Of a stretch of 64,000 bases of DNA, positions 1 through 43,555 are shown in pieces. Made by a program: the position numbers and the translations under genes. The notes beneath the pieces are model-generated. The model was not told the DNA's origin. It searched no databases and worked only from the letters and a program-made list of their open reading frames with translations. Every line of letters begins with the position of its first letter. The first letter of the stretch is position 1. This DNA is from Oscillospiraceae bacterium (GTDB taxonomy: Bacteria; Bacillota; Clostridia; Oscillospirales; Oscillospiraceae), in the NCBI GenBank assembly GCA_017552325.1, contig JAFZQE010000037.1, positions 4,926 to 68,925 of the forward strand, given 5' to 3'.

Positions 1-1
1 C

Positions 2-1255
2 GTCAACAGCGACATCACCGTCGGCGCGATGAAGAACGTCGCCATCGAGGACCTGCTCGGCCGCGAGCCGATCCGCACGGACATGGAGGATGTGCTGCAG
101 TTCGTGCGCGGCAAGTGCGTGCTCGTCACGGGCGGCGGCGGCTCGATCGGCAGCGAGATCTGCCGACAGGTCGCGTCCCACGGCCCGAGCAGGCTGATCA
201 TCTTCGACATCTACGAAAACAACGCCTACGACATCCAGCTCGAGCTGCGCGACCGCTATCCGAAGCTCGACCTGCTCGTGCTGATCGGCTCGGTGCGCGA
301 CAGCCGCCGCCTCGATCAGATCTTCTCCCTGTATCACCCCGATCTGGTCTATCACGCCGCGGCGCACAAGCATGTGCCTCTGATGGAGGACAGCCCCTGC
401 GAGTCGATCAAGAACAACGTCATCGGCACCTACAAGACCGCCTACGCCGCGATGGTGCACGGCTGCAGCCGCTTCGTGCTGATCAGCACCGACAAGGCGG
501 TCAATCCGACCAACATCATGGGCGCCTCCAAGCGCCTGTGCGAGATGGTCGTCCAGACCTTCGACCGGAAGATCCGCGATGGCCGCGCCTGCGACATCCC
601 GTCTCTCTATACCCACTGGGAGGGCGAGGGCGAGGAGCTGCGCCGCCTGCCCGGGGAGGTCCATACCGAGTATGTGGCCGTCCGCTTCGGCAACGTCCTG
701 GGCAGCAACGGCTCGGTCGTGCCGCTCTTTAAAAAGCAGATCGAGCGCGGCGGACCCGTCACGGTCACGCATCCCGACGTCATCCGCTATTTCATGACAG
801 TGCCCGAGGCGGTCAGTCTCGTTCTGCAGGCCGGCGTTTATGCCCGCGGCGGCGAGATCTTCGTTCTCGACATGGGCAGCCCCGTCAAGATCGACACCCT
901 GGCCCGCAACCTCATCAAGCTCTCCGGCTTCAAGCCCGACGTCGATATCCCGATCGAGTACACCGGCCTGCGCCCGGGCGAAAAGCTCTACGAGGAAAAG
1001 CTGATGGCCGAGGAGGGCCTCGAAAAGACGAAGAACAAGCTGATCCACATCGGCCATCCCGTCGCCTTCGACAACGACCGCTTCCTGCGGCAGATCTCCG
1101 TGCTGATGGACGCCGCCTATGCCAACCGCGACGATATCCGCGAGCTGGTGATGAGCATGGTCTCCACCTATCACCCCGCCGGCCGGCACGGCCAGGAGAA
1201 GAAGGACGAGACCTACGACCGTCTCGCCGTCGACGCCGAGACCGTGAAGTCTTAA
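2..1255 (+). CDS. CapD/PglF/WbpM-family polysaccharide biosynthesis protein (NDP-sugar 4,6-dehydratase); 5' end lies outside the window
   Basis: Frame is open to the window edge. Rossmann motif VLVTGGGGSIGSEICRQV plus YHAAAHKHVPLME and VRFGNVLGSNGSV blocks typical of the family. Confidence 0.85.
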   Translation, partial: VNSDITVGAMKNVAIEDLLGREPIRTDMEDVLQFVRGKCVLVTGGGGSIGSEICRQVASHGPSRLIIFDIYENNAYDIQLELRDRYPKLDLLVLIGSVRDSRRLDQIFSLYHPDLVYHAAAHKHVPLMEDSPCESIKNNVIGTYKTAYAAMVHGCSRFVLISTDKAVNPTNIMGASKRLCEMVVQTFDRKIRDGRACDIPSLYTHWEGEGEELRRLPGEVHTEYVAVRFGNVLGSNGSVVPLFKKQIERGGPVTVTHPDVIRYFMTVPEAVSLVLQAGVYARGGEIFVLDMGSPVKIDTLARNLIKLSGFKPDVDIPIEYTGLRPGEKLYEEKLMAEEGLEKTKNKLIHIGHPVAFDNDRFLRQISVLMDAAYANRDDIRELVMSMVSTYHPAGRHGQEKKDETYDRLAVDAETVKS

Positions 1256-1292
1256 AACTGCGGTTTTTTCGCCGGTTTCCTCTGATTTCCTG

Positions 1293-1321
1293 TTGACAGC
1301 GGATGGCTTGACAGGTATAAT
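1293..1321 (+). promoter_or_regulatory. Consensus sigma-A type promoter (TTGACA-17-TATAAT)
   Basis: TTGACA at 1293-1298, 17-nt spacer, TATAAT at 1316-1321, about 70 nt upstream of ATG 1394. Confidence 0.7.
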
Positions 1322-1393
1322 ATGTGATTGTAATTGGTAAGAGTATCTCTGACCGGGTTTTCCGGTATTTCTGACAAGAAAGGAATCATAACA

Positions 1394-1606
1394 ATGAAAA
1401 GAGTGCTTGCTTTTCTTGCGGTCCTGCTTCTGATCGTCTGCCTGTCCGCCGGCGCCTTCGCCGACAACGACAGCAATCCCGGCGGCGAGGAGCCCACTCC
1501 GCCCGTCGCGCCGACCACCGGATATACGATCGCGCTTGCCGCTCTCGGCCTGGCTGCCGTCGGCGGCGGAACGGTCTTTGCCGTCACGCGCAAAAAATCC
1601 AAATAA
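1394..1606 (+). CDS. 70-aa secreted micro-protein with a C-terminal sortase sorting signal
   Basis: ATG 1394 follows an AAAGGA ribosome-binding site (the track ORF starts at TTG 1334). Signal peptide MKRVLAFLAVLLLIVCLSAGAFA, then an APTTG motif, the hydrophobic stretch YTIALAALGLAAVGGGTVFAV and the basic tail TRKKSK. Confidence 0.7.
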   Translation: MKRVLAFLAVLLLIVCLSAGAFADNDSNPGGEEPTPPVAPTTGYTIALAALGLAAVGGGTVFAVTRKKSK

Positions 1607-1634
1607 GGATCATATCTACAGATCAAACAAATCA

Positions 1635-1668
1635 ACGGGGCTTGCTGGAAAGACGGCCCCGTTTTTTT
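1635..1668 (+). terminator. Intrinsic terminator/attenuator between the micro-substrate gene and the sortase gene
   Basis: Stem ACGGGGC (1635-1641) pairs with GCCCCGT (1656-1662), followed by a T7 run. Confidence 0.7.
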
Positions 1669-1686
1669 GACCTTTGAGAGAAGAAC

Positions 1687-2523
1687 ATGAAGAAAAAGAT
1701 CTATCGCGTCATCAGCATCGTCAGCCTGGTCGTAATGGCCGGCGCTATCCTGAGTCTGCTGTACACCTTTTATCTCTATCAGAAATCGAATAAAGAATAT
1801 CTTGCCCTGTCCCGGGCGGCCCATATCCGGACGCAGAGCGAGCAGGCTCCCGAGCCCGCGCAGGAAAAGGCGGAGCCGCAGCAGGGGGAGGAGCCCGAAC
1901 AGGCGGAAGCCGCGGAGCTGCACGCCGTGAACCCGATCGACTTCGCGTACCTGAAATCGGTCAACCAGGACATCGTCGGCTGGGTCGAGGTCGAGGGCAC
2001 GCCGATCGACTACCCGGTCCTCTTTGACGATTCGAATTTCGTCTATTATCTCAACCACAATCACGCCGGCGCCTATACGCCCTACGGGGCCGTTTTCATG
2101 CTCGGCTACAACACGCCGGACTTCTCGGATTTCAACACGGTCATCTACGGGCACAACATCGTCGACGGCAGCATGTTCGGCGCGCTGCACGACTTCGAGG
2201 ATCAGGAATTCTTCGACAAAAACAAGCTGATCCTTGTCTACACGCCGGAGAGGCGGCTCGTCTATCAGATCTTCGCCGCCTACCGGACGGACAACCTCGA
2301 CCAGGTGCAGAATTTCGACTTCGAGACCCCGGAGGGACGGCAGGAGTACATCGACCGGATCTACACCCATGACGTCCGGGCGATCTTAGATCCGGAAATC
2401 ACCGTCACGCCGGACGACCGGATCATCACGCTGTCCACCTGCATCGCCAACTACGCCTACCGTTATCTGGTGCAGGGCGTGCTGATCTCGGACGAGGAGG
2501 CGCTTTCGATCGCCGCGCCGTAA
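1687..2523 (+). CDS. srtB: Class B sortase
   Basis: N-terminal TM segment, GWVEVEGTPIDYPV, VIYGHN, catalytic TLSTC and a downstream conserved Arg (RYLVQG). Confidence 0.85.
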   Translation: MKKKIYRVISIVSLVVMAGAILSLLYTFYLYQKSNKEYLALSRAAHIRTQSEQAPEPAQEKAEPQQGEEPEQAEAAELHAVNPIDFAYLKSVNQDIVGWVEVEGTPIDYPVLFDDSNFVYYLNHNHAGAYTPYGAVFMLGYNTPDFSDFNTVIYGHNIVDGSMFGALHDFEDQEFFDKNKLILVYTPERRLVYQIFAAYRTDNLDQVQNFDFETPEGRQEYIDRIYTHDVRAILDPEITVTPDDRIITLSTCIANYAYRYLVQGVLISDEEALSIAAP

Positions 2524-2553
2524 ACGGAGCGAATCTGCTACGGAGGAAGACAC

Positions 2554-3750
2554 GTGGAAGCTCACGAGGAAAAGATACCGACTGCGGAACAGACGATAAA
2601 ACCGAAAAAGAAAAAAAAGAAAAAGCGCGGCTCGACGCAGAAGACCGTGGCGATCGTCCTGGCCTCACTGGCGGGGCTGCTGGTGCTGGCCGCCGTGGGC
2701 GCCTGGGGCTTTCTGAAGTATACCAGCAAGCTGCGCGAGGGCATGTTCAGCGACCGCTCCTCGAGCGAGATGCAGTCGATCCGCGAGCAGCGGCAGAAGG
2801 CGGGCGGGCAGAAGACGGAAGAATCGGGCGAACAGGCGGAGACCCCGCGGCAGACGCTGAAGAGGACGGACGACGAGCTGGCCGAAGCGGACTGGATCGA
2901 CGAGGAGGGCAATGCCTACCGCTACCGCGACGACGTGCTGACGATCCTGATCATGGGCATCGACAACATGAGCGATCCCTCGCTCTGGGCGGAGGGCATC
3001 GTCTCCAACGGCGGCAACGCGGACGTGATCGCCCTGGTCACGCTGAACACGGTCACGAAGGAGTTCTCGATCCTCTACATCCCGCGCGACACGATGGCAG
3101 AGCTGCTGATGCTCGACCCGGAGGGCAATTACCTCGACACGGTCTACAACAACATCTCCGCCTCCCACAGCTACGGCGACGGCGGAGCGCTCAGCTGCGA
3201 GCTGACGGCCGAGGCCGTGAGCAATCTGCTCTTCGGCGTGCCGATCCAGCGCTATGCCGCGCTGAACATGGAGTCGCTCCCCGTCGTCAACCAGCTCCTC
3301 GGCGGCCTGGAGGTCACTTTCCCCGACGACTACTCCTGGCTTGACTATTCCTTCCAGAAGGGAGCCACGGTCAGGCTGACGGACCGGCAGCTCAACCGCC
3401 TGATCCGCTACCGCGACAAATCCGAGGTGGAGGGCGCCAATCAGCGCGGTCTGCGCGATCTGAAGCTGGTCCTCAACGCGATGCTTCGCCAGGTGAAGGG
3501 AATGATCCGGCAGGTCCCCGGCTCCGCGCTGACGCTGTACCGCAAGCTGGAGCCCCAGCTGACGACCAATCTCTCCGTCGACGAGGTCAGCTACCTGATC
3601 CAGATGATCGATCATTTCCGCATCGACGACAAGACGGTCGTCAGCCTGAGCGGCACGACCCGGAAGGGCGAGAAGTACGCGGAGTTCTATCCCGACGAGG
3701 ACTGGCTGCGCGATTACGTCATTGAAAATTACTGCATCAAGCTGAACTGA
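2554..3750 (+). CDS. LytR-CpsA-Psr (LCP) family glycopolymer phosphotransferase
   Basis: GTG start behind GGAGGAAGA. Lys-rich cytoplasmic tail plus a TM segment. LCP core motifs ILIMGIDN, NADVIALVTLN and ILYIPRDT. Confidence 0.85.
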   Translation: MEAHEEKIPTAEQTIKPKKKKKKKRGSTQKTVAIVLASLAGLLVLAAVGAWGFLKYTSKLREGMFSDRSSSEMQSIREQRQKAGGQKTEESGEQAETPRQTLKRTDDELAEADWIDEEGNAYRYRDDVLTILIMGIDNMSDPSLWAEGIVSNGGNADVIALVTLNTVTKEFSILYIPRDTMAELLMLDPEGNYLDTVYNNISASHSYGDGGALSCELTAEAVSNLLFGVPIQRYAALNMESLPVVNQLLGGLEVTFPDDYSWLDYSFQKGATVRLTDRQLNRLIRYRDKSEVEGANQRGLRDLKLVLNAMLRQVKGMIRQVPGSALTLYRKLEPQLTTNLSVDEVSYLIQMIDHFRIDDKTVVSLSGTTRKGEKYAEFYPDEDWLRDYVIENYCIKLN

Positions 3751-3769
3751 ACAGAGTCAAAAGCAAACG

Positions 3770-3807
3770 AAACGGCAGGAACGCCCCGTGTGTTCCTGCC
3801 GTTTCTT
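3770..3807 (+). terminator. Intrinsic terminator after the LCP gene
   Basis: 13-bp stem AAACGGCAGGAAC (3770-3782) / GTTCCTGCCGTTT (3792-3804) with a T-rich tail. Confidence 0.7.
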
Positions 3808-3837
3808 GTGGAAAGCGCCGAAGAAAAGAGGGGAGAC

Positions 3838-3866
3838 TTGCATTATCGAAAAAGATGCGTTATACT
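3838..3866 (+). promoter_or_regulatory. Promoter candidate for the topoisomerase operon (TTGCAT-17-TATACT)
   Basis: TTGCAT at 3838-3843, 17-nt spacer, TATACT at 3861-3866. Confidence 0.55.
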
Positions 3867-3932
3867 ATATAGGCTAAAATAGACGGATTATGTCACGAAA
3901 TCACTACAAGATATGGTAAAAGGGTAACATTT

Positions 3933-5927
3933 ATGACAAAAAGCAGCGTATCCTACGGCAACGACAGCATCTCCCAGCTCAAGGGCGCCGACCGCGTCCG
4001 CAAGCGCCCGGGCGTCATCTTCGGCTCGGACGGGCTGGACGGCTGCGAGCACGCCGTGTTCGAGATCCTCTCCAACGCGATCGACGAGGCCCGCGAGGGC
4101 TACGGCGATCAGATCACGCTGACCGCCTACGAGGACGGCTCGATCGAGGTGGAGGACTTCGGCCGCGGCTGCCCGCTGGACTGGAACCCGAACGAGAAGC
4201 GCTTCAACTGGGAGCTGGTCTTCTGCGAGCTCTACGCCGGCGGCAAGTATCAGAACGCCGACGGGGGAGATTACGAATATTCCCTGGGCCTCAACGGACT
4301 GGGCTCCTGCGCCACGCAGTACGCGTCCGCCTACATGGACGTAACGGTCTGGCGCGACGGGAACCGTTACGACCTGCACTTCAAAAAGGGCAAGGTCGTC
4401 GGCAAGAAGGGCCAGGAGCTGCAGATCCAGCCCGCCGACCGCAAAAAGACCGGCACGACGATCCGGTGGCTGCCCGACCGCGAGGTCTTCACCGAGACCG
4501 ACATCCCGGCCGACTGGTTCCGCGACACGCTGCGCAAGCAGGCGGTCGTGAACGCGGGCGTGCATTTCCGGCTCCGCCTGCCGAAGGGGAAGCTCTTCAC
4601 GACCGAGGAGTTCTGCTACGAAAACGGCATCAAAGACTATGTGGCCGAGATCGCCGGAGAATGCGCGCTGACCGCCCCGGTCTTCATCCAGGCCGAGCGC
4701 CGCGGCCGCGACCGCGAGGACAAGCCCGAGTACAAGGTGCGCCTGTCGGCCGCCTTCTGCTTCTCCAACCGCGTGACCGCGCTGGAATACTACCACAACT
4801 CCTCCTGGCTCGAAAACGGCGGCGCGCCGGACAAGGCCGTCAAAAGCGCCTTCGTCTCCGCGATCGACGCCTATATCAAGAAGCTCGGCAAGTATCAGAA
4901 GAACGAGACGGCCATCAAGTTCCAGGACGTGCAGGACTGCCTCGTGCTGGTGACGAACTGCTTCTCCACGCAGACCTCCTACGAGAACCAGACCAAGAAG
5001 GCCATCAACAACCGCTTCATCCAGCAGGCGATGACCGAGTTCTTCAAGGAGCGGCTCGAGGTCTATTTCATCGAAAACAAGCCCGAGGCCGACCGCATCG
5101 CCGACCAGGTGCTGGTCAACAAGCGCAGCCGCGAGACGGCCGAGCGCGCCCGCCAGGGCATGAAAAAGAAGCTCTCCGGCTCGATCGACATCGCCAACCG
5201 CGTGCAGAAGTTCGTCGACTGCCGCAGCCGCGACCCGGAGAAGCGCGAGATCTACATCGTCGAGGGCGACTCGGCGCTCGGCTCCTGCAAGCTCTCGCGC
5301 GACGCGGAGTTCCAGGGCATCATGCCGGTGCGCGGCAAGATCCTCAACTGCCTGAAGGCCGACGTCGTGCGCATCTTCAAGAGCGAGGTCATCACGGACC
5401 TCCTCAAGGTGCTCGGCTGCGGCGTCGAGGTGAAGGACAAGCACACCAAGGACCTGCAGAGCTTCGACCTGGACAGTCTCCGCTGGAGCAAGGTCATCAT
5501 CTGCACCGACGCCGACGTTGACGGCTATCACATCCGCACCCTGATCCTGACGATGCTCTACCGCCTGGTGCCGACGCTGATCCGCGAGGGCTTTGTGTAC
5601 ATCGCGGAGTCGCCGCTCTACGAGATCGAGAGCAAGGGCAAGACCTACTTTGCCTACTCCGACCGCGAAAAGGCGGAGATCCTCGGCAAGCTCGGCGGCG
5701 CGAAGGCGACGATCAGCCGCAGCAAGGGCCTGGGCGAGAACGACCCGGACATGATGTGGATGACGACGATGAACCCGGCCACCCGGCGGCTGATCAAGGT
5801 CATGCCGGAGGACGCCGAGCGCATGGCAGCGGTCTTCGAGCTACTGCTGGGCGACGATCTGAACGGCCGCAAGGACCACATCGCCGAGTTCGGCAGCCGG
5901 TACCTCGACCTGGCGGACATTTCGTAA
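3933..5927 (+). CDS. Type IIA DNA topoisomerase subunit B (ParE/GyrB family)
   Basis: GHKL ATPase N-box EILSNAIDEA, Toprim motif IVEGDSALGS, PVRGKILN and DADVDGYHI. Confidence 0.9.
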   Translation: MTKSSVSYGNDSISQLKGADRVRKRPGVIFGSDGLDGCEHAVFEILSNAIDEAREGYGDQITLTAYEDGSIEVEDFGRGCPLDWNPNEKRFNWELVFCELYAGGKYQNADGGDYEYSLGLNGLGSCATQYASAYMDVTVWRDGNRYDLHFKKGKVVGKKGQELQIQPADRKKTGTTIRWLPDREVFTETDIPADWFRDTLRKQAVVNAGVHFRLRLPKGKLFTTEEFCYENGIKDYVAEIAGECALTAPVFIQAERRGRDREDKPEYKVRLSAAFCFSNRVTALEYYHNSSWLENGGAPDKAVKSAFVSAIDAYIKKLGKYQKNETAIKFQDVQDCLVLVTNCFSTQTSYENQTKKAINNRFIQQAMTEFFKERLEVYFIENKPEADRIADQVLVNKRSRETAERARQGMKKKLSGSIDIANRVQKFVDCRSRDPEKREIYIVEGDSALGSCKLSRDAEFQGIMPVRGKILNCLKADVVRIFKSEVITDLLKVLGCGVEVKDKHTKDLQSFDLDSLRWSKVIICTDADVDGYHIRTLILTMLYRLVPTLIREGFVYIAESPLYEIESKGKTYFAYSDREKAEILGKLGGAKATISRSKGLGENDPDMMWMTTMNPATRRLIKVMPEDAERMAAVFELLLGDDLNGRKDHIAEFGSRYLDLADIS

Positions 5928-5930
5928 TTT

Positions 5931-5997
5931 GAGTGCTTAGTCATTTACCTGATTACGCGTTTCCAAGCACTAAGCACTATGCACTAAGCACTGCACT
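5931..5997. repeat. Heptamer-periodic TGCTTAG/CTAAGCA repeat cluster in the intergenic spacer
   Basis: TGCTTAG at 5934-5940 (+). CTAAGCA / CTATGCA / CTAAGCA at 5970-5990, which reads TGCTTAG TGCATAG TGCTTAG on the minus strand. The 10-nt AGTGCTTAGT (5932-5941) is complementary to 5969-5978 and to 5983-5992. Confidence 0.85.
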
Positions 5998-6010
5998 CCC
6001 GGAGGGAACC

Positions 6011-37039: not shown

Positions 37040-37726
37040 ATGTCACTGTACGCGATCGGAGATCTACATCTGTCCCTGTCCGGCAGCAAGCCGATGCACG
37101 TCTTCGGCGAGGCCTGGGAAAACCACGCCGACAAGCTGCTGCAGGGCTTTTCCTGCGTCGGGGACGAGGACCTCACCGTGCTCTGCGGCGACCTGAGCTG
37201 GGGCATGAGCCTGGAGGAGGCGCGCGAGGACTTCCTGTTCATCGAGCGCCTGCCCGGGAAAAAGCTGATCCTCAAGGGCAACCACGACTACTGGTGGAGC
37301 ACGGCGGCGAAGGCGAAGCGCTTTTTCGCCGAAAACGATATCAAGAGCATCGACATCCTGCACAACAACTGCTTTTTCTATGAAGACTACGCCGTCTGCG
37401 GCACACGCGGCTGGTTTTTCGAGGAGGAGACCGGCACCGCGCACAACAAAAAGATCATGCTGCGCGAGATCGGGCGGCTGGAGACCTCGCTGAAGGCGGC
37501 GGGGGAGCGCGAAAAGCTCGTCTTTCTCCATTATCCGCCGATCTTTCAGAAATACGAGTGCCCCGAGATCCTCGCTCTGCTGAACGACTACAGCGTGAAG
37601 CTCTGCGGCTACGGGCACATCCACGGCAAGGGCTGCCGCCTGTCCTTCAACGGCTGGCGCGGCGGGACGGAGTTCCGGCTGCTGTCGGCCGACCATCTCG
37701 GCTTCAAACCCGTGAAAATACTGTAA
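37040..37726 (+). CDS. Metallophosphoesterase
   Basis: YAIGDLHLS (motif I), GDLSWG and GNHDYWW. Confidence 0.8.
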   Translation: MSLYAIGDLHLSLSGSKPMHVFGEAWENHADKLLQGFSCVGDEDLTVLCGDLSWGMSLEEAREDFLFIERLPGKKLILKGNHDYWWSTAAKAKRFFAENDIKSIDILHNNCFFYEDYAVCGTRGWFFEEETGTAHNKKIMLREIGRLETSLKAAGEREKLVFLHYPPIFQKYECPEILALLNDYSVKLCGYGHIHGKGCRLSFNGWRGGTEFRLLSADHLGFKPVKIL

Positions 37727-37742
37727 ACAGAAGAAAAAATCA

Positions 37743-37771
37743 TTGATTTTAGCTTGCAAATCTGCTATATT
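37743..37771 (+). promoter_or_regulatory. Promoter candidate for tig (TTGATT-17-TATATT)
   Basis: TTGATT at 37743-37748, 17-nt spacer, TATATT at 37766-37771. Confidence 0.45.
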
Positions 37772-37810
37772 AGCAAGGCTTGTATGCACATAAAAGGAAG
37801 GAGATCCACC

Positions 37811-39106
37811 ATGATCGTCAAGAACGTAGAGAAAAACGAAAACAACACCGCTGTTTTCACGGTCGAGTCCGACAAGGCCGAATTCGAGGCCGCCGTTCAG
37901 CGGGCCTATATCAAGAACAAGTCCCAGATTTACATCCCCGGATTCCGCAAGGGCAAGGCCCCGCGCCAGGTCATCGAGGGCATGTACGGTCATGAGGTCT
38001 TTTACCAGGACGCGCTGGACGAGCTGGCCCCGAAGGCCTACGAGCTCGGCGTGACGGAGAACGAGCTGCAGGTCGTCGGCGCGCCCTCCATCACGAACGT
38101 CGAGGTCACCGACGAGCGCAGCGCTTCCTATACCTTCAGCGTCGAGCTCTATCCCGTCGTCACCCTCGGCCAGTACAAGGGCATCGAGGCGGTCAGGCCC
38201 GTCGTCGCCATCGGCGACGAGGACGTCGATAAGGAGCTCGAGAGCGTCCGCAAACGCAACGCGCGCCAGATCAGCGTCGACGACCGCGAGGCGCAGATGG
38301 GCGACACCGCGAAGATCGACTTCGACGGCTTCCTCGACGGCGAGCGCTTTGACGGCGGCAAGGCCGAGGGCTATTCCCTCGAGCTCGGCTCCAATTCCTT
38401 CGTCCCCGGCTTCGAGGATCAGATCGTCGGCATGAAGGTCGGCGAGGAGAAGGACATCAACATCACCTTCCCCGAGGACTATGTGCAGGATCTGGCCGGC
38501 AAGGACGTCGTGTTCAAGGTCAAGCTCCACGATCTGACCGTGGCGGAGCTGCCCGAGCTGGACGACGAGTTCGCCGGAGACAACGGCTTCGACACGCTCG
38601 ACGAGTACAAGGCCAGCATCCGCGAGGACCTGGAGAAGAAGGCGACCGAAAAGGCCGAGACCGAATTCCGCACCGAGGTGCTGCACCAGGCCGCGCAGAA
38701 TCTGACCGTCACGATCCCCGAGTCGATGATCAGCGAGAAGACCGAGGAGCTGCTGCGCAACTACGCCGCCAACTTCGGCATGAACACCCGCGACATGACG
38801 ATCGAGCAAATCAAGCAGATGATGGGCGTCGACGACGCGACCGTCAACGCGAGCATCCGTCCCGCCGCCGAGCTGCAGGTCCGCAACGACCTCCTGCTCG
38901 AGGCCGTGATCAAGGCCGAGAACATCGAGACCAGCGAGGAAGAAAACCGCGAGTACCTCAATAAGATCGCCGAGAGCATCGGCGCGCAGGCCGAAGAGGT
39001 CGAGAAGTACTTCGGCATGGACTACATCGCCGGCGAGAAGAAGAAGGAAAAGGCGACGAACCTCATTCTCGAAAGCGCCGTTGCCAAGGCCCCCGAGCAG
39101 GCCTGA
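37811..39106 (+). CDS. tig: Trigger factor
   Basis: ATG 37811 follows AAGGAAGGAG. GFRKGKAPRQVIE signature and an FKBP-type middle domain. Confidence 0.93.
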   Translation: MIVKNVEKNENNTAVFTVESDKAEFEAAVQRAYIKNKSQIYIPGFRKGKAPRQVIEGMYGHEVFYQDALDELAPKAYELGVTENELQVVGAPSITNVEVTDERSASYTFSVELYPVVTLGQYKGIEAVRPVVAIGDEDVDKELESVRKRNARQISVDDREAQMGDTAKIDFDGFLDGERFDGGKAEGYSLELGSNSFVPGFEDQIVGMKVGEEKDINITFPEDYVQDLAGKDVVFKVKLHDLTVAELPELDDEFAGDNGFDTLDEYKASIREDLEKKATEKAETEFRTEVLHQAAQNLTVTIPESMISEKTEELLRNYAANFGMNTRDMTIEQIKQMMGVDDATVNASIRPAAELQVRNDLLLEAVIKAENIETSEEENREYLNKIAESIGAQAEEVEKYFGMDYIAGEKKKEKATNLILESAVAKAPEQA

Positions 39107-39178
39107 ACGGTATAAATTCCCCCGCGCGGGGATATGCTCTCTGAGAGTTTCGGATATCGGAAAGGAGAGTTTCATACA

Positions 39179-39760
39179 ATGAGTCTGGTACCCTATGTAG
39201 TTGAACAGACCAGCCGCGGCGAGCGTTCCTACGACATTTTCTCCCGCCTGCTGAACGACCGGATCGTCATGCTGAGCGAGGAGGTCAACGACACCACCGC
39301 GAGCCTCATCGTGGCCCAGCTCCTCTATCTCGAGGCGCAGGACCCCGACAAGGACATCCAGTTCTATATCAACAGCCCCGGCGGCAGCGTGACGAGCGGC
39401 CTGGCGATCTACGACACGATGCAGTACATCAAGCCCGACGTGTCCACCATCTGCGTCGGCATGGCCGCGTCGATGGGCGCCTTCCTGCTGTCCTCCGGCG
39501 CGAAGGGCAAGCGCATCGCCCTGCCGAACGCCGAGATCATGATCCACCAGCCCTCCGGCGGCAGCCGCGGCCAGGCGACCGACATCCAGATCCAGGCCGA
39601 GCAGATCCTCAAGATCAAGAAGCGCCTGAATCAGATCCTCGCCGACAACACCGGCAAGAGCGTCGAGGAGGTCGAGCGCGACTGCGAGCGCGACCACTTC
39701 ATGACCGCGGAAGAGGCGCAGGCCTACGGGCTGATCGACAAGGTCATCTACAAGCGCTGA
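39179..39760 (+). CDS. clpP: ATP-dependent Clp protease proteolytic subunit
   Basis: [11 protein letters not shown], catalytic Ser in GMAASMGA, and IMIHQP. Confidence 0.95.
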
Positions 39761-39856
39761 GACTGCGAAAGAATCGGATAGACACGACGGAGCGCGGGGT
39801 GGGCGGCAGCCCTCCTCGCGTTCCCGGTATAAGCAAAATGATGATGGGAGAAGAAT

Positions 39857-41113
<1,257 letters not shown>

Positions 41114-41158
41114 AACACAGGTTTTTTCACCGCGACCTCTCGGAAAGGAGGTTTCCCC

Positions 41159-43555
41159 ATGAACAAAGACAATATCGCTTCCGAACGCCGTGTACTGCCG
41201 CTGCTGCCCCTGCGCGGCCTGATCGTGTTTCCGCAGATGCTGCTGACCTTCGACGTCGAACGCCCGGCCTCCCTGGCCGCGATCGGCGCGGCCAACCACG
41301 GCGAGCATCTGATCTTCCTCTCCGCGCAGAAGGACATCTCCGTCGACGTGCCGCAGGAGAAGGACATCTACAGCGTCGGCACGGTCTGCCGCATCCGGCA
41401 GCAGATCCGCGGCGGCCACGCCGGCTGCCGGCTGATGGTCGAGGGCCTGTTCCGCGCCTGCGCGCTCAGCATGGACACCGACAGCAAGGGTTACACCGCC
41501 GTGCTCGAGCGCGTGAGCGACCGGCCCGAGCGCGTCAGCGCGAGCAGAAGGGAAGCGCTGCTGCGAAACTGCCTGACGCTTTTCAACGAATACCTGCACA
41601 TGAATCCGGACATGATGAACGAGCAGCTGCTCAACGTGCTCGCCAATCCCGATCCCGATTACGTGTCCTGGTACATCGCCCAGAACCTGCGCGTGAACAT
41701 CCCCGCGCGGCAGGAGATCCTCGAGGAGCTGAGCCTCAGCCGCCGTCTGACGGCGCTCGGCAGGCTCCTGCAGAACGAGCTGCATATCCTCAGCATCGAG
41801 CAGGAGCTCAACGACGCGACGCAGCAGGCGATGGAGCGCAGCCAGCGCGAATACTATCTCCGCGAGGAGATGAAGATCATCCAGTCCGAGCTGGGCGAGG
41901 ATTTCGGCACGGACGATTTCGCCGAGTACCGCAGCCGCATCGAGGCCTTGCCGGTGAAGGACGAGGTGCGCGAGAAGATCCTCAAGGAGCTTTCGCGCCT
42001 GCAGAAGCAGCCCTTCGGCTCCTCCGAGTCCGCGGTGCTGCGCGGCTGGCTGGACACCGTGCTCGAGCTGCCCTGGGGTGTCCGGACCGAGGAGACGCTC
42101 GACCTCGACAAGGCCCGCCGCATCCTCAACGAGGATCACTACGGGCTCGACAAGGTCAAGGAGCGCGTGCTGGAATACCTTGCGGTGCGCAAGCTCACGC
42201 CCGGGCTGAAGGGCGGCCTGCTCTGCCTCGTCGGCCCTCCGGGCACCGGCAAGACCAGCGTCGCGATGAGCATCGCCCGCGCGCTTAACCGCAGGCTTGT
42301 GCGCCTGTCTCTCGGCGGCGTGCACGACGAGGCCGAGATCCGCGGGCACCGCAAGACCTACATCGGCTCCATGCCCGGCCGCATCATGAACGGGATTGCG
42401 CAGGCCAAGTCCTGCAACCCGCTGATGGTGCTCGACGAGGTCGACAAGCTCGGCGCCGATTACCGGGGCGACCCCTCGGCCGCCCTGCTCGAGGTGCTCG
42501 ACGGCGAGCAGAACAACAGCTTCCGCGACCACTTCCTCGAGATCCCCTTCGACCTGTCCGAGGTCTTCTTCATCACGACCGCCAACACGACCGACACGAT
42601 CCCGCGCCCGCTGCTCGACCGCATGGAGCTCATCGAGCTCAGCAGCTACACCGACGAGGAAAAGCTGCAGATCGCGAAGCGGCACCTGCTGCCCAAGCAG
42701 CGGAAAAAGCACGGGCTCAACGGCGTTCAGCTCCGCGTCGGCGACGATGCGATCCGCGAGATCATCGCCGTCTACACGCGCGAATCCGGCGTCCGCACGC
42801 TCGAGCGCGAGCTCGCGGCCCTCTGCCGCAAGGCGGCGGGGCGGATCGCGGAAGGGAAGTGCCGCAGCCTGACGGTCAAGCCGGATAAGCTCGAGGAGCT
42901 CCTCGGCCCGGCGAAGTTCAAGCGCGACGAGACGAGAAACCGCGACGAGATCGGCCTCGTGCGCGGCCTTGCCTACACCAGCGTCGGCGGCGAAGTGCTC
43001 GACGTGGAGGCCGCCGTGCTCGAGGGCAGCGGCAAGCTGGAGCTCACCGGCAACCTCGGCGAGGTGATGAAGGAGTCCGTGCACGCCGCGGTCAGCTTCA
43101 TCCGCAGCCGGGCCGAGCAGCTCGGCGTCGACCCGGACTTCTACAGGAACTGCGACATCCATCTGCATTTCCCCGAGGGCGCCGTGCCCAAGGACGGGCC
43201 CTCCGCCGGCATCACGGTCACCGTGGCGCTTATTTCCGCGCTCACCGGAACGCCCGTGCGGCACGACATCGCCATGACCGGCGAAATCACGCTGCGCGGC
43301 AGGGTGCTGCCGATCGGCGGCCTGCGGGAGAAAACGATGGCCGCGCTGCGCGCCGGGATACATACCGTCGTCATCCCAGAGGACAATCTGCCCGACCTGG
43401 CCGAGATCGACCAGACCGTGCGGCAGGCGCTGCATTTCGTCAGCACCGACCGCGTGGAGAAGATCCTCGACCTCGTCCTCGTGCGCCGTCCCGCGGAGAG
43501 CGCGGCCGGCTTTCTCCCGGCTTCGGACGAGAAGCGCCTTCCCGTCAGGATGTGA
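41159..43555 (+). CDS. lon: Lon protease (endopeptidase La)
   Basis: [13 protein letters not shown] in the N-terminal domain, Walker [10 protein letters not shown], and catalytic [10 protein letters not shown]. Confidence 0.95.

Follow-up and report, generated by a model that had tools for sequence, protein, structure and literature searches.

The subject of this study is a gene cassette at the start of a 64,000-nucleotide stretch of DNA from an Oscillospiraceae bacterium (hereafter the window). The cassette encodes a micro sortase substrate of 70 amino acids (aa), a class B sortase (SrtB) and a LytR-CpsA-Psr (LCP) phosphotransferase, and lies next to a CapD-type sugar dehydratase gene (Table 1). 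The small open reading frame (ORF) is a real gene under purifying selection, its linkage to sortase and LCP genes is conserved, and the catalytic residues of both enzymes are retained. Together these results lead us to propose, with a little better than even confidence, that the cassette provides an adaptor, in the form of a gene-encoded peptide, for a glycopolymer of the cell wall.

The 70-aa protein has the parts of a complete wall-anchored precursor. It begins with a predicted Sec signal peptide, read from the sequence as MKR followed by a hydrophobic core of 14 residues and then A-F-A as the cleavage site, and ends in a C-terminal sorting signal composed of APTTG, 22 uncharged residues and the basic tail RKKSK. 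Re-reading of the sequence thus bore out the signal peptide and tripartite sorting signal that an initial annotation of this DNA had assigned to the ORF, as well as its estimate of a mature stub of about 19 residues, since the region predicted to remain after both cleavages runs from D24 to T42 (DNDSNPGGEEPTPPVAPTT). The motif is also of the xPxTG type claimed for it, since Pro occupies position 2 and TG positions 4 and 5 as in the SrtB motifs of C. difficile. The description of the stub as Lys-free holds for the window and fails for the family, in which a human-gut lineage has TTVKSNQGGNPGGKPTAPRTG. An AAGGA ribosome-binding site is found 9 nt upstream of the ATG, and no other ORF within the window bears a sorting signal. 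An identical protein is present in GenBank (MBR5343067.1), where it is a 'hypothetical protein' of an Oscillospiraceae metagenome-assembled genome. Some other readings of the protein were considered and rejected. A lipoprotein is excluded as the invariant Cys16 is preceded by Val or Ile and so lacks a lipobox, D-S-N-P-G is not an N-glycosylation sequon as it has Pro at +1 and no Ser/Thr at +2, and pilin-like polymerization is unlikely given the lack of Lys in the window stub and of any conserved Lys in the family.

Homology searches show that the micro substrate is maintained as an intact gene. A search with the single sequence recovered six homologues at 64-97% identity, all of 70-71 aa. After locus-derived relatives were added, a profile search recovered approximately 65 clusters (at 90% identity) of intact ORFs of 64-75 aa, none carrying a name beyond one 'hypothetical protein'; this is the opposite of the loss or disruption in orthologous loci that had been raised as grounds for doubting the ORF. 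Pairwise ratios of nonsynonymous to synonymous substitution (dN/dS) were 0.13-0.53 in 15 pairs from six lineages, with dS ranging up to saturation. In a 50-member alignment M1, S27, P40, T42 and G43 are invariant and N28, G30 and G31 nearly so. Two motifs thus characterize the mature stub, S-N-x-G-G close to the N-terminus and P-x-T-G at the other end, while the spacer, membrane segment and tail drift, the last two being the least conserved parts of the protein. The intact clusters, the low dN/dS, an invariant promoter of its own (see below), the ribosome-binding site and the mobile position of the ORF relative to its neighbors lead to the conclusion that the micro ORF is a real gene under purifying selection.

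The linkage of this gene to a sortase and an LCP enzyme is conserved. Using an alignment of 40 sortase sequences, we recovered 80 loci in a metagenome scan. All six lineages with upstream DNA and a sortase at least 47% identical to that of the window have the order micro gene, srtB, LCP, with a micro substrate of 69-71 aa positioned 22-81 nt upstream of srtB and the LCP gene directly downstream. The sorting motif is APTTG in the window and in loci L006 and L007, APATG in L011, SPRTG in L012 and APRTG in the human-gut lineage (L013-L023 and L066). Where the sortase is 32-46% identical, the LCP gene is mostly still immediately downstream, often overlapping, and a protein of 175-290 aa with an SPKTG, APKTG or SPQTG motif is encoded after the LCP gene or before the sortase. 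An LCP gene was found within 3 kb in 34 of the 44 sortase loci having at least 2.5 kb on each side, and a small dedicated substrate on the same strand in 32 of those 34 (33 counting L083, whose start is truncated), although these counts are non-independent as many loci come from one lineage. Nine of the ten loci without an LCP gene also lack a substrate; the tenth is a Bacillus locus (L002), probably of the heme-uptake type. A scan of a genome collection with the single sortase returned only five distant loci, which served as negative contrasts. Two of these are Clostridia loci that lack an LCP gene, and the others are Bacillus and Sporosarcina loci, probably of the Isd type for heme uptake.

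A wider family was recovered when 1.84 billion representatives (at 50% identity) were searched with a hidden Markov model (HMM) without filters, which gave 478 matches at E <=0.001. Among the 142 newly listed matches, 72 are of 100 aa or less and share one layout: a signal peptide with A-x-A, a nearby Ser (very often Ser-Pro), a spacer rich in acidic residues, Pro, Gly and Thr, an SPQTG, SPKTG or NPKTG motif, a membrane segment and a Lys-rich tail. Five distant micro members were sampled for their genomic context, and all five adjoin a sortase, an LCP gene or both. In L094 the micro gene is followed by an LCP gene, and in L093, on a short contig, by what is probably the N-terminus of a sortase, matched only weakly (E = 0.001). 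The order is Wzz-CpsD-CpsB-Sortase-micro-LCP in L097, Sortase-LCP-micro-CpsB-CpsD in L099 and micro, Sortase, then probable LCP in L100. Furthermore, CpsB and a CpsD-like ATPase are encoded nearby on the opposite strand in the human-gut lineage. The search for conserved triads of a small xPxTG ORF, SrtB and LCP that the initial annotation had called for is thus positive in six of six close lineages, and among distant micro substrates five of five are linked to sortase, LCP or both. Retention of the linkage through shuffled gene orders argues for functional coupling, and the company of Wzz, CpsD and CpsB points to capsule-type, Wzy-dependent polysaccharides.

If a polymer is attached to the peptide, the candidate acceptor is Ser27. 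A Ser near the N-terminus is present in 121 of 132 micro substrates (DNDSNPGG in the window), a set retrieved with a profile that contains the motif. The longer substrates were collected from their loci without reference to their N-termini. Approximately 30 of 31 such proteins, by hand count, have a Ser within about seven residues of the predicted cleavage site, mostly flanked by Pro, as in APSPE, ADSPE, DSPT and QPSV; Ser has a frequency of 7% in the rest of the mature region. Over the full set of 83 long substrates, 37% have Ser at +3 and 37% have Pro at +4. The micro and 175-290 aa substrates share three things only, namely the signal peptide, the N-terminal Ser and the sorting signal. The enrichment is suggestive of a common feature that would have survived reduction of the substrate to a stub.

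The longer substrates also form a family of their own. Proteins of 175-290 aa with SPKTG or APKTG motifs are encoded right after SrtB-LCP pairs in loci L024-L090 (for instance at 5775-6344 in L035, 5727-6395 in L043 and 3426-4160 in L072). They have Ser-Pro just past the predicted signal-peptide cleavage site and match no Pfam or NCBIfam family. A separate mini substrate of 82-83 aa (MANDSPSKETDS...SPKTS) follows the LCP gene in L048 (5520-5768) and L053 (3102-3353), where the sortase is approximately 34-35% identical. The presence of this mini substrate in the L048/L053 lineage suggests that substrates were reduced in size more than once.

The LCP enzyme of the cassette aligns to TagU (6uf6, 1e-8), TagV and Cps2A, and its TIGR00350 score of 43.1 falls below the cut-off of 62.3. 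We aligned 59 distinct sortase-linked LCP proteins to TagU and compared them at reference residues of Cps2A (D234, D246, R267 and R374) and TagT (R118 and R227), with equivalences inferred from motif and spacing. The Mg-binding Asp pair and the Arg of IPRD (TagT R118, LcpA R149), the proposed general base, are kept in 59 of 59 proteins. Two later positions, including the equivalent of Cps2A R374, are Arg in all 58 proteins that cover them, one sequence being truncated. In contrast, 58 of the 59 have another residue in place of the G-R-x-D Arg, namely Gln in 38, Asn in 17 and Leu, Glu or His in one each; the window protein has Asn (GNADV). Additionally, the Asp aligned with the 'GDF' of TagU is Asn, Ala, Ser or Thr in 58 of the 58 proteins covering that position. 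By its 23-residue spacing to the IPRD Arg, the replaced residue corresponds to TagT R95 and A. oris LcpA R128. In the TagT complex R95 lies distal to the donor, and LcpA R128 is dispensable for glycosylation of GspA in A. oris (PMC6381275). By the same spacing the equivalent in S. aureus LcpA would be R99, which has been placed near the proposed peptidoglycan-sugar sites in a review (PMC7831098). Because the catalytic residues are kept and the G-R-x-D position is changed, the sortase-linked LCP clade looks catalytically competent and altered on its acceptor side.

The window LCP protein also contains a pair of Cys residues, one located 37 residues after the IPRD Arg and the other five residues from the C-terminus (..ENYCIKLN). 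The pair is reminiscent of a disulfide, C179-C365, that is reported to be peculiar to LcpA of Actinomyces, and a bond here is putative. Both Cys residues are kept in the micro-substrate subclade, while L011 and the distant clade have Tyr in place of the C-terminal one.

The closest solved structures to the sortase are S. aureus SrtB (1qwz, 7e-31) and the enzymes of C. perfringens (5b23) and C. difficile (5gyj). Residues H156, C252 (in TLSTC) and R259 are invariant in a 40-homologue alignment. According to the text that cites the work, the clostridial SrtB enzymes studied so far accept diaminopimelate (PMC13121745, reference 30).

The regulatory DNA around the micro gene agrees with what had been described for it. 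The perfect TTGACA-17-TATAAT promoter scored 12 of 12 and is the only promoter site found in 1200-4000, and its -35 and -10 hexamers are invariant across six diverged lineages in which the flanking sequence has diverged. The hairpin followed by seven T residues was likewise recovered after the micro gene, in the 80-nt spacer before srtB (-24.4 kcal/mol, z = -3.7 vs shuffles); a terminator scanner missed it only because its loop exceeds 8 nt. A hairpin is present at the same spot in five of the six lineages, with stems that differ in sequence, and is missing from L012. The run of U residues is restricted to the three closest (the window, L006 and L007), and is weak or lacking in L011 and L013. 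We consider it likely that this element is a partial terminator or 3' stabilizer, and the hairpin at the end of the cassette is a probable operon terminator. An Rfam scan of 1150-3900 gave no riboswitch and no leader RNA.

Based on these results, we propose the following mechanism. The strong conserved promoter would drive expression of the 70-aa precursor, and the hairpin behind it would reduce the transcripts that continue into srtB and the LCP gene, so that the substrate would outnumber the enzymes. The precursor would be exported and cut by signal peptidase after AFA, with the C-terminal segment and RKKSK tail tethering the peptide in the membrane. The adjacent LCP enzyme would then transfer a polysaccharide-1-phosphate from its undecaprenyl-pyrophosphate carrier to the hydroxyl of Ser27, near the new N-terminus. 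Finally, in the order that we assume, the class B sortase would cut APTTG between Thr and Gly and join Thr42 to the amine of the peptidoglycan cross-bridge. The outcome would be a polymer, perhaps of the capsule type, that hangs from the wall on a spacer of approximately 19 residues.

Genetic work on M. gnavus (Nat Commun 2026) is relevant to this proposal. In that organism srtB4 (RGna_12035) adjoins an LCP gene (RGna_12040) in a cluster with a bacterial tyrosine kinase (BY-kinase)/phosphatase pair (PMC13121745). Clean deletion of srtB4 abolishes the wall-associated capsule and complementation restores it, and disruption of the LCP gene has the same effect as the deletion (PMC13121745). The authors considered it unlikely that the sortase makes capsule; they offered no mechanism, and candidate targets appear only in a supplementary figure (PMC13121745). 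The earlier suggestion that the peptide is a glycopolymer acceptor is therefore supported by the invariant Ser of the stub, by the loci within capsule modules and by the M. gnavus srtB4 genetics, while the mechanism given above is our own construction. More broadly, we would give an even chance to the hypothesis that gut Clostridia (Oscillospiraceae, Lachnospiraceae and relatives) possess a third, undescribed route for fixing capsule-type polysaccharides to the wall. In this route a ribosomally made adaptor of about 20-45 residues would be phosphoglycosylated on its N-terminal Ser by a specialized LCP clade and ligated through its C-terminal Thr to peptidoglycan by a dedicated class B sortase, with the 175-290 aa substrates as the ancestral form and the micro substrates as the minimal one.

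Several points weigh against the adaptor proposal. All of its chemical steps are inferred from sequence. The micro substrate narrowly misses the cut-offs of the anchor HMMs (PF00746, 19.6 vs 20 bits; TIGR01167, 14.8 vs 15.9), although these misses are marginal and both models rest on LPXTG rather than xPxTG. Near the window cassette CapD is the only polysaccharide gene, and glycosyltransferase, Wzx/Wzy and CpsBCD genes are absent; as the four genes CapD-micro-srtB-LCP lie among housekeeping genes, those for polymer synthesis must lie elsewhere. The enrichment of N-terminal Ser was compared without matched unrelated secreted proteins and is partly circular for the proteins retrieved by HMM. The LCP enzyme keeps all that is needed for its usual action on peptidoglycan, and the Arg substitution, mapped by motif spacing, is only suggestive. 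Finally, the primer-derived ends of M. gnavus RGna_12030 (MEE... and ...A-stop) suggest a protein of the Wzz/CpsC type and not a micro substrate, and the text of that paper names no sortase substrate (PMC13121745).

The alternative that survives best, which we regard as unlikely, is that the peptide is itself the wall decoration. An acidic brush rich in Pro and Gly would alter surface charge or mask peptidoglycan, the LCP enzyme would act on N-acetylmuramic acid (MurNAc) as usual, and the genes would travel together through a shared site of envelope assembly. This explanation accommodates the complete tripartite sorting signal with its dedicated sortase, the full catalytic set of the LCP enzyme and the standing of CapD as the sole polysaccharide gene near the window cassette. 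However, it leaves unexplained why the gene linkage persists through rearrangements and inside capsule modules, why a single Ser of the stub is invariant amid drift and why M. gnavus needs a sortase for capsule display (PMC13121745).

Somewhat less probable again is a coupling by other chemistry, in which another O-glycosyltransferase acts on the peptide, or the sortase takes its nucleophile not from the peptidoglycan cross-bridge but from an amine of the glycopolymer or a lipid-linked intermediate, while the LCP enzyme fixes polymer to MurNAc. The conserved linkage would fit such schemes. CapD-type dehydratases lead to amino-dideoxy sugars, which might have free amines. Set against these considerations are the absence of any other transferase conserved in the cassette, the acceptance of diaminopimelate by clostridial SrtB enzymes as cited in the M. 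gnavus report (PMC13121745, reference 30), and the specific change of the LCP clade at a residue that a review of the S. aureus LcpA structure places near the proposed peptidoglycan-sugar sites (PMC7831098).

A regulatory role for the small protein, in which a membrane fragment freed by the sortase signals, or the precursor serves to titrate or chaperone one of the two enzymes as SafA does for Actinomyces SrtA, appears improbable. The protein is small, predicted to be membrane-tethered, expressed from a strong promoter and adjacent to a sortase, and small membrane proteins linked to sortases are known (PMC9282373). Yet it is the extracellular SNxGG and PxTG that are most conserved and the membrane segment and tail that are least, no sensor kinase is linked, and long substrates with folded domains fill the same genomic role in sister loci. 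A SafA-like sortase chaperone in particular was rejected as a candidate, given that the conserved parts are extracellular and the cleavable sorting motif is invariant. The last alternative, a chance ORF or leader peptide in the G+C-rich 5' region of the srtB operon, would suit a short ORF with no curated family and the label 'hypothetical protein', and is effectively refuted by its intactness in approximately 65 clusters, a dN/dS below 0.55 in all pairs, an invariant promoter of its own, a ribosome-binding site and the different places that it occupies around srtB and the LCP gene elsewhere.

The remaining features of the window concern the setting of the cassette. The neighbors first assigned to the micro gene (srtB, LCP and a CapD-type dehydratase) were upheld by matches to TIGR03064, PF03816 and PF02719. 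The CapD-type protein is PseB/FnlA-like and falls below equivalog cut-offs. Its full-length gene encodes 685 aa in L101-L103 and L011, whereas the window copy runs off the start of the window; the gene is found upstream of the micro gene in the window, L006, L007 and L011. In L101 (1-18218), which is from the same organism, the genes upstream of the full-length CapD gene encode a carboxylesterase, a GAF-domain protein and two HGD-D (2-hydroxyacyl-CoA dehydratase family) proteins, and none of these is a polysaccharide gene. On its downstream side the cassette is followed by topoisomerase genes (parE/parC-like) and further genes of housekeeping function. It is thus a free-standing unit of four genes in this organism.

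Table 1. Coordinates of the cassette and its sub-parts in the window.
Feature	Position	Strand	Details
CapD/PglF-type membrane-bound UDP-sugar (uridine diphosphate sugar) 4,6-dehydratase, C-terminal part	1..1255	+	PF02719 Polysacc_synt_2, E = 2e-113
Sigma-A type promoter	1293..1321	+	TTGACA-17-TATAAT
Micro sortase-substrate gene	1394..1606	+	70 aa; MKRVLAFLAVLLLIVCLSAGAFA / DNDSNPGGEEPTPPVAPTT / GYTIALAALGLAAVGGGTVFAVT RKKSK
Signal peptide	1394-1462		
Mature stub, D24-T42	1463-1519		
Ser27 codon, S-N-x-G-G motif	1472..1474	+	sole invariant stub residue outside PxTG; candidate acceptor of glycopolymer phosphate
Sorting motif APTTG	1508-1522		
Membrane segment	1523-1588		
RKKSK tail	1589-1603		
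Stop	1604-1606		
Intergenic hairpin, micro gene/srtB	1634..1668	+	9-bp G+C-rich stem 1634-1663, U7 at 1662-1668
srtB, class B sortase	1687..2523	+	278 aa, N-terminal membrane anchor; TIGR03064 166.4 bits vs cut-off 153.75
LCP phosphotransferase	2554..3750	+	398 aa, GTG start, N-terminal membrane anchor; PF03816 55.5 bits vs 24.6
Cassette-end hairpin	3763..3809	+	-30.7 kcal/mol, z = -4.3

Other observations were made elsewhere in the window. Between the parE-like and parC-like genes, at 5928-6005, AGTGCTTAG and CTAAGCACT form an inverted repeat, and AAGCACT recurs there as direct repeats. The listed GTG start of a 772-aa ORF, at 5933, is probably too early, as the gene call in the related contig L101 gives 746 aa. 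An ORF of 2123 aa on the minus strand (37064-43435) overlaps well-supported plus-strand genes, for example that of Lon protease at 41159-43555. It was rejected as a further sortase substrate as it has no sorting signal and overlaps plus-strand genes such as lon, and it is probably not a real gene, being a common artefact of G+C-rich DNA.

The capsules of gut Clostridia shape both colonization and inflammation. M. gnavus that has lost the srtB4 cluster has no capsule, no longer colonizes competitively and makes colitis worse in mice (PMC13121745). If the peptide-adaptor route exists, it would explain the requirement of M. gnavus capsule for a sortase and would offer a concrete answer to why a protein-anchoring enzyme should serve a polysaccharide. 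It would also widen the range of LCP acceptors beyond the single Actinomyces case, add an unannotated micro-protein family (the 478 representatives described above) to gene catalogues and provide a natural minimal sortase/LCP tag for the display of glycans on Gram-positive cells.

No description of micro sortase substrates or of a SrtB-LCP-substrate module was found in full-text searches of the literature, in keeping with the initial annotation's belief that the peptide is undescribed. Pfam and NCBIfam likewise contain no family for the micro or long substrates, giving only weak anchor matches. The micro family is thus without annotation and without description in the sources searched. Among the closest known systems, C. 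difficile SrtB (PMC4371152, PMC4155245) is also a class B enzyme and recognizes the xPxTG motif type described above. In contrast, it is a single, general sortase that is not paired with an LCP enzyme, and its (S/P)PxTG substrates are adhesins and enzymes of ordinary size, whereas position 1 is Ala or Ser in the proteins described here. Similarly, the canonical LCP ligases (B. subtilis TagT/U/V, S. pneumoniae Cps2A and S. aureus LcpA/C) have the PF03816 fold, N-terminal anchor, Mg-binding Asp residues and catalytic Arg seen here. Those enzymes attach teichoic acid or capsule to the C6 hydroxyl of MurNAc without a sortase or peptide, and differ from the sortase-linked clade, in which the G-R-x-D Arg is replaced (58/59) and the 'GDF' position is never Asp.

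The M. gnavus srtB4 cluster (RGna_12030-12060) matches L097, L099 and the distant SrtB-LCP-substrate loci in layout. The primers of the M. gnavus study matched none of the loci collected here in exact or fuzzy searches, the nearest sortase motif being in L054. As the sortase primer most resembles L054, which encodes a 231-aa substrate, the substrate in M. gnavus may be of the long and not the micro type. The initial annotation knew Actinomyces GspA/LcpA/SrtA as the sole precedent for coupling a sortase substrate to an LCP enzyme; Actinomyces no longer stands alone in this respect.

In A. oris, LcpA glycosylates the sortase substrate GspA (PMC6381275), and a 2021 review names it as the only LCP enzyme known to glycosylate a protein (PMC7831098). 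The A. oris system resembles the window in that the genes of the LCP enzyme and of a sorting-signal protein are genetically linked, and transfer of glycopolymer phosphate followed by anchoring is proposed. Furthermore, the position at which the LCP clade of the window has lost its Arg corresponds to R128, a residue that A. oris LcpA can do without. The two systems differ in that GspA is a full-size protein handled by the housekeeping class E sortase SrtA, whereas the cassette pairs a stub of approximately 19 residues with a dedicated class B sortase; in phylum, the cassette belonging to Clostridia of the Bacillota; and in the acceptor site, which is unplaced in GspA and has a single invariant Ser as its candidate here. 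By analogy, the system would follow the logic of Actinomyces GspA/LcpA/SrtA and probably that of M. gnavus srtB4 as well. It is set apart by three points: a substrate reduced to a stub, a dedicated class B sortase and an LCP clade with an altered motif.

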